Source of the DNA: Deltaproteobacteria bacterium
GTDB taxonomy: Bacteria; Desulfobacterota; Syntrophia; Syntrophales; UBA2210
Direction of reading: 5' to 3'
Length of the DNA: 28,815 nucleotides
NCBI GenBank assembly: GCA_019313735.1
Contig: JAFDAR010000008.1
Span: 1-28,815, forward strand
In this document: piece by piece, positions 1 through 9,958 of the stretch
Numbering within the stretch: position 1 is the first letter of the stretch
How the letters are laid out: the number at the start of each line of letters is the position of its first letter
Position numbers and translations under genes: made by a program
Notes under the pieces: generated by a model
What the model saw: the letters and a program-made list of their open reading frames with translations, nothing else
Database searches by the model: none
What the model was told of the DNA's origin: nothing

Positions 1-38
1 TCGATCAAAGGGGAATACTGAGGATTACCGTTGGAAGT

Positions 39-103
39 GTAGTAATTCACCGGACTTTAATAAGCGAAGCGTTAAAAGTTCCGGTGGAATGATTTAGTTA
101 TGT
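39..103 (-). other. integron attC-like recombination site, R' end missing
   Basis: On the minus strand, 2 nt after the TAA at 106-108: ACATAAC (R'', 97-103), TAAAT, CATTCCA-CCGGAACTTTTAA, loop CGCTTCGCTTA, TTAAAGTCCGG-TGAATT, ACTAC. The left arm has unpaired extra bases as expected for attC. The expected GTTRRRY at 32-38 is replaced by ACTTCCA. Confidence 0.65.
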
Positions 104-105
104 TT

Positions 106-225
106 TTAACTATATTTTCCAACTGGGTAAATTGTAATTACGATACCAACACCTAAAGCAGATACCCGTTTGACCAACTCTGGTGTAGCACGGAGAGCAA
201 ATCTATGAACTGGTGAACAGGAACA
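106..225 (-). pseudogene. 3' remnant of a small cassette-like gene (C-terminus reminiscent of DUF4279)
   Basis: Open frame ...FALRATPELVKRVSALGVGIVITIYPVGKYS* ending just before the attC-like site. The upstream part of track ORF 106..303 is MITE sequence. Family resemblance is from memory only. Confidence 0.3.
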
Positions 226-269: not shown

Positions 270-1094
270 TCCATATCTCCAGATGTGTCACCATTTTTTT
301 CATTAATCTTTTCCCTTAAAAACTTAAATCCGGGAGTAATGTTTTCATCAAGATCCATTGGCATAAGAGAATTGGCCGGATAGTCCGCCGGTTTTGAAAA
401 GATTTTCAAGCGTATAGAAAACAAGGTTCGCCGGCATGCCCACTGCCATTTCATGCTCTGAGATTCCTGCAAATGACCGGTCTCCCGCACCGGGGAGAAT
501 CACCTGCGGTATTTCCGTTACAAAAGGAATCAGTCCCCCCTTCAGGCATGTTTCTCCGAAACCTTCAAACGTAGATGATGGAGCATGAAGATGCTCATAG
601 CTGAGCGCCTGAATGATATGGGTAAGTTGAACCCCGTCTCCGTATACAAGAACTGAATCCGGTATGTCATACGCTTCATGAAGGGGAGAGCAGATAAAAC
701 CGATATATCCCATCATTCTTCCAATATCTTTTGTTGCAAGAAGCTTTGCGCTTGCCTCAAAACGTCTCTTTTCTGATTCAAGATCCTTGTGCCATCCTTG
801 TCTGACTTGGCTTTCAAGTAGGTCTTCGAGAGATATATCAACCCATTGATGTCCGGCTGTTGCAGGAGTACAGAAGTTGTCGTCAGCTGTCATTGCAATT
901 GTGGAACCGGCGCGGCGTGCCTGTGTTATTGCCTGGCAGAGTGCCATTTTTCTTCCAAATGCCGATGGCCGCATGGCACCATCGGGAATCTCGTCCTTTG
1001 ATTTAATGTATTTTATTGCGACCGGATATGTTGACAAGTGTAGTTTATGATAAAGTTTATTTCCCGCTTTCTGATAGTTCGTTAAATCAGTCAA
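260..1094 (-). pseudogene. DUF169-family protein, frameshifted near the C-terminus
   Basis: AAGGAGG RBS then TTG at 1094 (MTDLTNYQKAG...YPVAIKY...ALCQAITQAR...FCTPA...CLKGG...PGAGDR). The frame breaks after LFKTGG (~384) and the protein-like tail YPANSLMPMDLDENITPGFKFLREKINE continues in track ORF 260..490. Confidence 0.7.
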
Positions 1095-1180
1095 ATCAGA
1101 CCTCCTTGTACACAGCTTAATTTGTATTAAAATCGCTATTAAAAATAACAATTAATATACTTGGCAGGTATTTTCCGAAC

Positions 1181-6335: not shown

Positions 6336-6512
6336 ATGGCGAATCCAACCAATAGACATTCGAGAACAAGGAGAAATAAGAGAAGGACTCACGATACCCT
6401 TAAAGCTGTCACTACCTCCGTATGCTCACAATGCAGTGAACCAAAGCTGCCCCACCGCGCATGTCCCCATTGTGGTTTCTACAAAGGGCGTGAAGTTATT
6501 TCCGTTGAATAG
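6336..6512 (+). CDS. rpmF: 50S ribosomal protein L32 (Zn-ribbon form)
   Basis: MANPTNRHSRTRRNKRRTH...CSQC.EPKLPHRACPHCGFYKGREV. Own ATG at 6336. Confidence 0.95.
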   Translation: MANPTNRHSRTRRNKRRTHDTLKAVTTSVCSQCSEPKLPHRACPHCGFYKGREVISVE

Positions 6513-6548
6513 ATTTTCCCGGAGTATGTGTTCTAAGGGCGAAGAATT

Positions 6549-7502
6549 ATGGATAACTTAGGCATAGTCTTTCCCGGTCAGGGTTCACAATACGTTGGAA
6601 TGGGAAGGGAACTGTACGAAGGATTTAAAGAAACAAGGGAAATCTTTGCGGAAGCGGAGGAAGCTCTCAACACCGACCTCGCGAAACTTTGCTTTGAAGG
6701 GCCGCAGGATGTCCTCGATCTGACGCCAAACACTCAAACGGCAGTATTGACAGTGGGCGTTGCTTTCTACAGGGTATTTGAAAAGGAAATAGGCATAGAG
6801 CCGGAGGCCATGGCGGGACACAGCCTGGGAGAATATGCCGCTCTCTGTGCCTCAGGGGCCATCGATTTTTCCGATGCCGTTAAACTTGTATATGCAAGGG
6901 GACGATACCAGCAGGAAGCGGTGCCTCAGGGCAAAGGCTGCATGGCTGCTATTATTGGCCTTGACAGGGGATCTGTTGAAGAAATATGCCAGAATGCGGA
7001 CAAAGCCCATGGAGTGGTCGCGTTGGCGAATATCAACAGCCCGGGTCAGTTTGTTATCTCCGGTAACACTGCAGCAGTTGAAAAAGCCATAGTGTTGGCA
7101 AAGGGGAAAGGCGCCCGGATGGGTGTCAAACTCCCCATAAGTGTTCCCTGCCACTGCAACCTCCTGGACGAAGCGGCAGAAAAACTGGAAAAAGATCTTG
7201 ACCGTGTCTCAATAAGGAACTGCAGGGTAAAGGTAATACCGAACTTTGATCCGGAAGCTCTGCATTCAATAGACACTACCAGAAAACTCCTGGCAAGGCA
7301 GTTGAATTCCCCCGTAAGATGGCAGGAAACTGTAGAACGGATGTACAAAATGGGGATAACGACTGTGGTCGAGATAGGGCCGAAAAGGACTTTGTCAAGT
7401 CTCATAAAGAGGATAGACAGGCGTATTAAAACCCTTAATATAGAGGATATCGCCTCTCTGAAAGCAACAATGGATTTCTTTAACGGTGACGAGGCGGCAT
7501 AG
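6549..7502 (+). CDS. fabD: malonyl-CoA:ACP transacylase
   Basis: FPGQGSQYVGMG, catalytic GHSLGEY, ANINSPGQFVISG, SVPCHC, VRWQE, EIGP. Confidence 0.96.
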   Translation: MDNLGIVFPGQGSQYVGMGRELYEGFKETREIFAEAEEALNTDLAKLCFEGPQDVLDLTPNTQTAVLTVGVAFYRVFEKEIGIEPEAMAGHSLGEYAALCASGAIDFSDAVKLVYARGRYQQEAVPQGKGCMAAIIGLDRGSVEEICQNADKAHGVVALANINSPGQFVISGNTAAVEKAIVLAKGKGARMGVKLPISVPCHCNLLDEAAEKLEKDLDRVSIRNCRVKVIPNFDPEALHSIDTTRKLLARQLNSPVRWQETVERMYKMGITTVVEIGPKRTLSSLIKRIDRRIKTLNIEDIASLKATMDFFNGDEAA

Positions 7503-7523
7503 ACTCATGTTTTTTCGTGTCAG

Positions 7524-7539
7524 TCCCGACGAGTCGGGA
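7524..7539. repeat. TCCCGAC-NN-GTCGGGA mini-hairpin
   Basis: tcccgac-ga-gtcggga, 21 nt after the fabD stop. Family also at 8394, 18816, 19719 and 26401. Confidence 0.7.
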
Positions 7540-7633
7540 TTACGGAGTGTTTAGCCTGTGATTTTGTCGCTCTGGGAGGAAAATACCGGCAGGGCGTGCA
7601 AACGAAATCATTCTTGAAAAAAATAAGGTATAT

Positions 7634-8395
7634 ATGAAAATGTCAGGCGGAAAACCTCTGGATGGGAAAATAGCGCTGGTAACGGGTAGTTCGAGGGGGA
7701 TTGGAAGAGCCATTGCGGTGGAGCTTGCCCGCGCGGGGGCTTTTATCTTCATAAACTATGTCAGAGGTGAAGAGGCGGCCCGCAAGACGCTGAAGATTAT
7801 GGAGGACCGGGGGGACAAGGGAAGTCTGCTGAGTTTTAACGTGTCGGATTTCGATGCCGTTCAGGATGCCATAAGGGGCATAACGGAAGAAAAAGGCAGA
7901 ATCGACATCCTGATAAATAATGCCGGTATAACTTTAGATGGTATATTTGTAAGGACAAAGCCTGAAGAGTGGGACAATGTCATAGACATAAACCTCAAAG
8001 GGGTTTTTAATTGCTGCCGAGCCGCAACCAGATACATGATGAAACAGAGATGGGGGCGGATCGTAAATATGACCTCGGTAGTAGCCCTGTCCGGGAATGC
8101 CGGACAGGTGTGCTATTCCGCATCCAAAGCGGGGATTGTGGGATTGACGAAGTCCCTGGCCAGGGAACTGGGTTCAAGGAATATATGTATCAATGCCGTC
8201 GCGCCGGGATTCATTGAAACCGATATGACGGTGTCCATTGGGGAGAAGAGCAGGGAAAAGGTAATAGACCAGATACCGCTGGGAAGAACGGGCACGCCGG
8301 ATGACGTTGCCGGTGTTGTGGCATTCCTGGTTTCCGGGAAGGCCGATTATATCACCGGGCAGGTGATACACGTCAATGGTGGACTTTACATGTAG
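7634..8395 (+). CDS. fabG: 3-oxoacyl-ACP reductase
   Basis: TGSSRGIG, INNAGIT.D, YSASKAG, NAVAPGFIETDM, ITGQVIHVNGG. Confidence 0.96.
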   Translation: MKMSGGKPLDGKIALVTGSSRGIGRAIAVELARAGAFIFINYVRGEEAARKTLKIMEDRGDKGSLLSFNVSDFDAVQDAIRGITEEKGRIDILINNAGITLDGIFVRTKPEEWDNVIDINLKGVFNCCRAATRYMMKQRWGRIVNMTSVVALSGNAGQVCYSASKAGIVGLTKSLARELGSRNICINAVAPGFIETDMTVSIGEKSREKVIDQIPLGRTGTPDDVAGVVAFLVSGKADYITGQVIHVNGGLYM

Positions 8396-8413
8396 TCCCG
8401 ACTTGTCGGGACT
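8394..8413. repeat. TCCCGAC-NN-GTCGGGA mini-hairpin
   Basis: agtcccgac-tt-gtcgggact overlapping the fabG TAG. Confidence 0.75.
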
Positions 8414-8468
8414 GTTTTGAGATAAGTATTGTGACATGTACTTTGAAATACAATTAGGAGGAAGCTAA

Positions 8469-8714
8469 ATGACAGTTAATGTCGATGAAAAGGTAAAAGA
8501 GGTTATTATTGAACAGTTGAACATAACAGAGGAAGAATGTGTGCCCGATGCCTCATTTATAGATGATCTTGGGGCCGACTCCCTCGACATAGTTGAACTG
8601 ATTATGGCTATGGAGGATAATTTCAGCATAGATATATCGGATGACGATCTGATGAAGATACGCACAGTCCAGGATATTGTTGATTATATAAAGGAAAGAA
8701 TGTCACAGTCATGA
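8469..8714 (+). CDS. acpP: acyl carrier protein
   Basis: [27 protein letters not shown] phosphopantetheine motif. Confidence 0.97.
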
Positions 8715-9958
8715 TGTCAAGAAGACGGGTTGTGATAACAGGGCTTGGTATTGTAAGCCCCCTGGGTAATTGCCTGGAAGATGCATGGAAGGGGATATGC
8801 TCCGGGAGGTCCGGTATTGCGGAGATTACCAGGTTCGACACAACCGGATTCAAGACAAAAATAGCGGGTGAATTAAAGAATTTTGATCCCCTGACCTTTG
8901 TAGATTCCAAGGAGCGCCGCAGGCTGGATGATTTCATCATCTATGCCCTGGCGGCTTCAGAGATGGCGTTGAACGATTCCGGTCTGGTGATAGATGACAG
9001 AAATGCAGAGAAGGTGGGTGTTATATTGGGTTCAGCGATAGGGGGCCTGTCCACCATGGAGAAGGAAAAGGAGACCATCCTCAACCTGGGACCGAAAAAA
9101 ATGTCCCCTTTTGCGATTCCGGCGGTATTGGCAAACCTTGCTCCGGGGCATGTATCTATACGATTTGGCGCCAAGGGTCCCATAAGTTGTGTCGTGACGG
9201 CGTGCGCCTCGGGCAATAATGCCATCAGCGACGCTTTCAGAACCATAGCCTGCGGTTACGCTGACGCCATGATAGCGGGTGGTACGGAGGCGGCCGTCAC
9301 CCCTCTTACAATAGCAGGATTCAACGCCATGAGGGCGATATCAACCAGAAACGAGGAACCGGAAAGGGCGAGCAGGCCATTCGACAGAGACAGGGATGGA
9401 TTTATCGTAAGTGAGGGATGTGGCATATTAATCCTTGAAGAGTTGTCCCATGCCCTTGAAAGGGGTGCCAGGATACATGCCGAGATTGCCGGAACAGGGT
9501 CAACCAGTGATGCCTTTCACATGGCGGCCCCGCCCCCTGGGCATGCGGGAGCAGTCAGATGTATGCGGCTTGCCCTGCAGGACGCCGGGATGGAACCCAC
9601 AGATATCGATTACATAAATGCGCATGGCACATCGACGCCTCTCAACGACATATATGAGACGGACGCGATAAAAAAGGTCTTTGGCGGATACAGCGGGAAA
9701 CTTGCCGTCAGCTCGACAAAGTCCATGACAGGTCATATGCTGGGCGCCGCGGGTGGTGTTGAGGCCATCTTTTCTGTCAAGGCTATACAGGAGGGGATTG
9801 TACCCCCGACGATAAATCTGGACAATCCGGATCCGGAATGTGACCTGAATTATACACCACACACGGCGCAACGCAGGAAAATCAGGGCTGCCATGTCGAA
9901 CACTTTTGGATTTGGCGGCGTAAATTCGGTTGTTGTGTTTAAGAAATTTGAAGGTTAA
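8711..9958 (+). CDS. fabF: beta-ketoacyl-ACP synthase II
   Basis: RRVVITGLG, catalytic [35 protein letters not shown]. Confidence 0.96.

Follow-up and report, generated by a model that had tools for sequence, protein, structure and literature searches.

In a working attC site, the bottom strand folds into a hairpin whose paired R and L boxes are bound by IntI. The extrahelical bases of the L'' arm tell IntI which strand is held, and IntI cuts between the A and the C of the AAC triplet in R'. IS1111-attC elements and group IIC-attC introns both target attC sites. According to the published description, the extrahelical bases are found close to L'' on the bottom strand, and the AAC of R' is where cleavage occurs (PMC5027507). 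Where attC sites, alone or in clusters, occur without an integron integrase, they are termed SALIN or CALIN (bioRxiv 10.1101/2022.09.11.507474), and IS1111-family elements target one end of attC sites (PMC11187229).

Here we analysed the first 28,815 bases of contig C289 (hereafter the window), so that position 1 is the contig start. The assembly (G000) is a MAG of 1.76 Mb in 335 contigs and 87% complete; own-genome searches covered these contigs, and the relatives compared were 151 genomes of the order, 38 genomes of the family and 13 genomes of the same genus. What the window holds at 45–103 is probably left over from an integron attC of the kind that this Syntrophales genus uses. Like an integron attC (PMC5027507), the site shows a stop codon with an RYYYAAC-type R'' right behind it, an unpaired spacer of 6 nt, a stem in which L'' and L' pair imperfectly, and a variable loop, but unlike one it has no GTTRRRY R', second spacer or cleavage site. 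Much as in SALIN and CALIN loci, one attC-type site would accompany one or two cassette-like genes far from intI, with integron remnants elsewhere in the genome, and the array may have entered at a secondary site that contains GTT and lies downstream of a promoter-like repeat. Unlike in those loci, the only attC is truncated, so that a standard caller would miss it, and the putative insertion point, ...AATTG/TT (1149/1148), recurs in a conserved 200-nt block and is not a random GWT site. Taken alone, a dead attC of this kind would be a fairly ordinary fossil of gene-cassette traffic; the recurrent blocks that flank it are the more interesting part.

Anatomy of the hairpin at the contig start

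On the minus strand, the first 1.3 kb of the window reads as a conserved block, G/TT, a DUF169 gene, a MITE stub, 113 nt, a truncated attC and a conserved unit, with the following features:

1150–1285 (about), minus strand: repeat1146, part of a conserved block of ~200 nt (single copy in the MAG, multi-copy in relatives)
348–1151, minus strand: DUF169 gene (PF02596, E 1.6e-38)
217–272 (about), minus strand: terminal fragment, about 55 nt, of a 142-bp MITE family (compared by eye with the full copy at 2628–2769)
104–216, minus strand: 113-nt stretch between the MITE fragment and R'', with an ORF tail
108–106, minus strand: TAA stop of that tail, 2 nt before R''
45–103, minus (top) strand: probable attC-derived site (from folds, models, identity to L047 and uniqueness)
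103–97, minus strand: R'' box ACATAAC
96–91, minus strand: 6-nt spacer TAAATC
90–72, minus strand: L'' (5' arm) ATTCCACCGGAACTTTTAA, 19 nt, with extra C, A and T
71–61, minus strand: 11-nt loop
60–45, minus strand: L' (3' arm) TTAAAGTCCGGTGAAT, 16 nt
1–44, plus strand: inner 44 nt of a conserved 66-nt unit (whole unit: consensus CACCTACTAACAAATGATT followed by window 1–44; alignment A1)

The elements on which an earlier, sequence-only reading had founded its proposal of an attC-like site, namely a TAA, ACATAAC 2 nt further on and an imperfect hairpin with extra bases, are all present on the minus strand. ACATAAC agrees with the RYYYAAC form of R'', with A at one Y position, and the same word is R'' in L059, the first attC next to an intI that matches TIGR02249 in the same-genus genome G002. 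The imperfect hairpin spans 45–90. As single-stranded DNA, the minus strand folds at -11.2 kcal/mol (z -3.5; 0 of 200 shuffles equally good) and the plus strand at -10.8 kcal/mol (z -2.7), the latter with an unpaired T, G and one A, all on the 3' arm. Because the extrahelical bases lie near L'' on the plus strand, the plus strand is the bottom strand by the definition in PMC5027507, and the extra bases of the L'' arm stand on the strand and arm expected of an attC, as had been proposed.

At the other end of the hairpin, L' stops at 45, and the place expected for the R' box is occupied by TACTACACTTCCA, which belongs to the conserved unit; the 45/44 junction holds no GTTRRRY box, no second spacer and no cleavage box. 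Compared with L047 and L049, in which L' likewise ends in ...TGAAT, the window is without the next 10 nt, that is, a 6-nt spacer followed by ATTC or ATTA. The site would thus have kept R'', one spacer, L'', the loop and L', and would be without the second spacer and the whole of R' (~10 nt including the cut site), its hairpin running straight into the 66-nt unit that adjoins attC R' ends in relatives. Since the cut site is absent, the site could not be cut and the DNA upstream of it would be fixed in place; it is predicted to be a truncated, dead attC derivative and not a functional member. The earlier proposal that R' is gone and the cassette immobilised therefore holds in substance, but simple mutation of the box does not describe the loss, as R' and its adjoining spacer are absent together at the unit junction.

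We built two covariance models, R1 trained on five unit-adjacent sites only and R2 on 16 sites, both distinct from the IntegronFinder model. Window 31–103 scores 17.4 bits with R1 and 15.6 bits with R2, which lies below any calling threshold; the genome-wide E is ~6, making the site the ninth-best match and not significant by covariance score alone, and for a single pre-specified place p is roughly 6e-4 (E ~6 rescaled from 3.5 Mb to about 300 nt). In the model alignment R'', the spacer and both L arms fit, and the second spacer and R' fall unpaired on the unit, with R' placed on ACTTCCA with non-pairs; the score is low because the spacer and the R' box are missing. The half made up of R'', spacer and L'' is identical at 22 of 27 positions to the attC of L047 (G002:C83; p about 0.0015), and the two share a bulge pattern of 4 bp, C, 5 bp, A. 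L047 was the one significant match in nine pairwise comparisons, similarity to the eight other attC sites not being significant. The attC reading is thus largely supported by comparison and not by score: what stands of the original proposal is ancestry, from the R'' word, the bulges, the identity to L047 and the position beside the unit, whereas the score is weak and function falls away. A regex-plus-folding attC finder, run on the genome, was discarded as far too unspecific, with 313 'strong' candidates mostly in coding DNA.

A weak covariance score and an absent R' box are also what an ordinary intergenic stem-loop would give, for example a transcript stabiliser or terminator that follows DUF169 or a gene beyond the contig's left end, with its attC likeness a coincidence. 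RYYYAAC-like words are frequent in AT-rich DNA, and the plus strand has a mildly T-rich tail past the stem. However, a scan of 1–1600 for intrinsic terminators on both strands did not list the hairpin, and the minus-strand tail after the stem, TACTACAC, contains no T-run. The hairpin occurs once in the 1.76-Mb assembly, where it matches only itself and all other blastn-short matches are chance matches of at most 17 nt, so it does not behave as a REP- or MITE-type repeated hairpin. Its bulges are placed as in the L047 attC, it stands exactly beside the unit as the attC sites of relatives do, and the genome carries other attC sites and an intI remnant; we therefore consider a coincidental stem-loop unlikely.

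Integron traces in the MAG and its relatives

True intI genes are found in G002 (two copies) and G005, where they score 433–448 bits on TIGR02249 (cut-off 265), and the attC ACATAAC...GTTATGT closes the first cassette next to the intI of G002. Although not trained on it, R1 recovered the intI-adjacent attC L059 at 36 bits, together with three sites (L063) in an array beside another intI fragment (G002:C94). Across the 16 sites the R and L helices covary, with 81% of cells paired versus 19–42% when the partner is slid. In the MAG itself R1 gave 34 bits on C111 and 28 bits on C238, each site standing behind a short ORF as in a cassette, and R2 added the site on C21 and the second site on C185. 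The attC-family sites of the MAG, all complete, and its intI remnant are:

C111:10003–10062, minus strand: attC-family site
C281:677–735, plus strand: attC-family site
C185:4119–4177, minus strand: attC-family site
C185:5907–5980, minus strand: attC-family site
C238:1561–1618, plus strand: attC-family site
C21:7602–7663, plus strand: attC-family site
G000:C176:4710–4898, minus strand, at the contig end: intI remnant, 55/63 residues (87%) identical to residues 16–78 of G002 IntI

Short cassette-like ORFs end just before the attC on C111, C185 and C281, and the organism thus carries cassettes on several small contigs. In the intI remnant the match stops after residue 78 and unrelated sequence follows; its attI and any array would lie past the contig end. 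No intact intI was found in the 87%-complete MAG, and the own-genome search reported no TIGR02249 match on contig C289. The sequence-only reading had proposed a search for further attC sites and an intI gene, and had set against itself the lack of a covariance-model score, a genome free of other attC sites and intI, and a hairpin that recurs genome-wide after ordinary operons. None of these fully applies: the hairpin does not recur, and other attC sites and an intI remnant are present. A dead site such as the window's is of use chiefly as evidence that cassette exchange by integrons extends to syntrophic Desulfobacterota, where cassettes are left behind at a distance from the integrase.

In the complete Syntrophales genome G011, an N-terminal intI remnant lies at 478.6 kb, followed on the opposite strand by at least four attC matches at 484–495 kb (G011:C1:478620–495000; OY761459.1). 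The locus is a sedentary chromosomal integron whose integrase has decayed.

The conserved unit at the R' end

The contig start falls inside the 66-nt unit, copies of which are 90–98% identical in G013, G004, G002, G005, G011, G023 and G017; no second copy of window 1–44 was found in the MAG. Among the relatives' copies, the unit abuts the R' end of a strong attC hairpin in 6 of 12 that could be assessed and of a weak one in 3 of 12, and the window's hairpin holds the same place beside the unit as these homologous attC sites. Read outwards from the unit, the relatives have [T/G]A[A/G][C/T]G, a variable hairpin and then GTTAGGC, GTTATGC or GTTAGGG; on the other strand this is R'' (GCCTAAC or GCATAAC), spacer, L'', loop, L', spacer and GTTA or ATTA joined to the TAC of the unit. 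The corresponding junction in the window is ATTCA, unlike that of any relative. In four or five of the unit-adjacent sites the base before TT is A and not G, which is odd for an IntI crossover.

The constancy of the unit at one fixed R'-region point of many different attC sites would also be accounted for if the site in the window were a true attC that had lost its R' end to the insertion of a small attC-targeting mobile element, in which case the unit would be that element or its end and not an array boundary. The unit has 5-bp inverted termini (TACTA...TAGTA), and the inner GTTA and outer GGTG could make a GTTAGGT R' box. The locus resembles the IS1111-attC elements ISPst6, ISKpn4 and ISPa25 (PMC11187229) in having a foreign conserved sequence at a fixed point of the attC end and in the association of an IS110/IS1111-superfamily element with this locus type. 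Unlike in those systems, the 66-nt unit is not an IS end: the insertion point of the element is TTCAC-CT-ACTAAC at the unit's outer edge, outside the attC. IS1111-attC elements are recognized by a DEDD transposase with a downstream non-coding region, whereas in L066–L071 the non-coding region lies upstream of the transposase gene. The full-length copies at these loci overlap the outer edge of the unit by 9–10 nt, ending ...GGTAyCT/ACTA just within it; most unit copies have no transposase nearby, and no transposase or larger element is consistently attached to the unit. At 62 nt without structure the unit would be very small for a mobile element, and in G050 and at loci of the L090 type the sequence that resembles the unit is no more than the DNA preceding a promoter (in G050 and another subfamily, a promoter and an ncRNA candidate). 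Destruction of R' by such an element appears quite improbable on this evidence.

Several related assignments of the unit were rejected. It is not the right end of an IS1111-attC-type element, as the full-length IS ends about 55 nt earlier; nor is it a structured RNA or an attC, as it folds no better than shuffled sequence, indeed worse, and matches no Rfam family. Nor does the unit form the terminal inverted repeats of a transposon, as no inverted repeats were found in the window, L041, L043 or L044. An IS110 transposase on C26 of the MAG, considered as the left neighbour of the window, belongs to a different element and has no join to it.

The IS110-family element is ~1.25 kb long, encodes a transposase of 329–333 aa, and is found in L066 (G013:C14) and L067–L071 (G050), where it is inserted at TTCAC-CT-ACTAAC, at the outer margin of the unit or of a sequence resembling it. 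In the long non-coding region upstream of its gene, TTCACCT and TTTGTT(C)AGTA resemble guide segments for both strands of this target. L042 (G005:C128:18598–19177) is a copy of an IS110-family element without its 5' half.

Were the unit the opening 66 nt of a non-coding cassette that recurs, the array would continue to the left of the window, much as the sequence-only reading had allowed. In favour of this, the attC is always followed at once by TTATAC or TTCTAC as the start of the unit, a cassette-start-like sequence (TTRRRY), an attC-like hairpin lies 27 nt beyond the unit in L048, and a conserved hairpin of ~110 nt lies just outside the unit in L041, L047 (copy a) and L050. However, the 110-nt hairpin is bounded by GTTAGTA ... 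TGATAAC, in the reverse of attC polarity (GTT... first, ...AAC last), R1 and R2 find no attC beyond the unit, and mostly ordinary chromosomal genes (GlnS, MoxR/DUF58, GNAT) follow on its outer side in relatives. In the window the cassette-like content lies to the right, in the DUF169 gene (348–1092/1151), and a leftward array is very improbable.

Beyond the unit in L045 (G004:C48), positions 6474–9043 carry a ribbon-helix-helix gene, a gene for a 417-aa replication-protein-like product and a tyrosine recombinase gene. The region is a small integrative element adjoining a two-cassette array.

The DUF169 gene and the recurrent block before it

The DUF169 gene probably starts at a TTG near 1092, after AAGGAGG. 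No orthologue was found in the 13 same-genus genomes, and proteins 50–64% identical occur in other genera of the family; given its absence from the same genus and presence in other genera, we regard DUF169 as an accessory gene, and it is likely to be a cassette gene. Upstream of it, the minus strand of repeat1146 ends in ...TATATTAATTG, with G at 1149, followed by TTA (1148–1146) and variable DNA. All 13 copies of repeat1146 fetched from relatives end at the same base, after which come TT and cassette-start-like DNA (TTAGGT, TTATGT, TTAGCT), a ribosome-binding site and a gene. The attC models match downstream on the same strand for 8 of the 13 block copies, with clear arrays in L088, L089 and L091, and the ...AATTG/TT boundary just past which DUF169 begins is the one that precedes the attC-bearing cassettes in these three loci. 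Some block copies precede ordinary genes with no attC found, as with MarC in L084, and in the complete genome G011 the strong attC matches cluster by the intI remnant and not at the block copies.

Repeat1146 resembles attI and attG sites in that it ends in G/TT, is followed by cassette-like starts and has attC downstream on the same strand; unlike an attI or attG, it is multi-copy, has no adjacent intI and bears no similarity to the intI-linked attI of G002. Homology to that attI was rejected, as blastn gave no match, and an alignment to the attI of G005 was at most suggestive. We regard repeat1146 as a candidate for the point where arrays start or for a secondary integration site, equipped with a promoter or leader. 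In the preferred reading of the window as an attC remnant, DUF169, the MITE stub and the 113 nt would make up a one- or two-cassette array without an integrase, of SALIN or CALIN type, that was later damaged by the MITE insertion and, presumably, by deletions.

The order of block, one or two genes, attC and unit is found in L041, L043, L044 and the window. We tentatively suggest that the two conserved blocks, one ending in AATTG/TT at 1149 and the other the unit at 1–44, form a multi-copy, integrase-less cassette-acceptor platform in Syntrophales, a speculative reading that we regard as rather unlikely as a whole. Its promoter-bearing repeat may in some copies be preceded by an ncRNA gene of ~130 nt, its fixed G/TT may be a dedicated secondary site (attI-like or a hot attG) loaded by a distant IntI, and its outer edge may be the programmed target of the IS110-family element. 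A search of the 38 family genomes for an empty platform, in which repeat1146 would run directly into the unit, found none, and one metagenome scan gave just 8 chance AT-rich matches. Small arrays in several related genomes start at an identical base of the ~200-nt block, and at four loci, the window included, they also end at the unit. If the block is a preferred integration site, it would illustrate in nature how cassettes spread to genomic (attG) sites, as has lately been proposed, and a repeatedly used site of this kind would give a handle on how attI sites arise.

The ncRNA gene candidate is ~130 nt long, with a TTGACA-type promoter and a strong terminator (AAAGCCCTG...CAGGGCTTTTTT), and matches no Rfam family. 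In L087, L089, L090 and L091 it lies between unit-like sequence and repeat1146. In G050 (L067, L068, L070) it follows unit-like sequence with no block seen right after; among the G050 loci L071 alone has a block-like end, about 0.9 kb downstream.

Between DUF169 and the attC remnant, the MITE fragment that had been noted at the left edge is real: 226–269 has 37 further matches in the assembly and corresponds to one end of the genome's 142-bp MITE. The ORF at 106–303 has 65 codons and runs through this fragment, so that at most about 37 codons (216–106) could stem from an older coding sequence. A cassette-like gene remnant had been read into 106–225, with DUF4279 as a possible family. The 41 codons that adjoin R'' have no Pfam match, to DUF4279 or otherwise; tblastn in the 151 genomes of the order gave nothing below E 0.006, and no relative was found among the longer proteins of a 5.8-billion-protein set. 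Nothing in these searches shows that the stretch would once have been coding. Further into the window, 1447–1555 is a diverged copy of the 142-bp MITE family, and 1281–1392 is 75% identical to 2400–2503, another short repeat.
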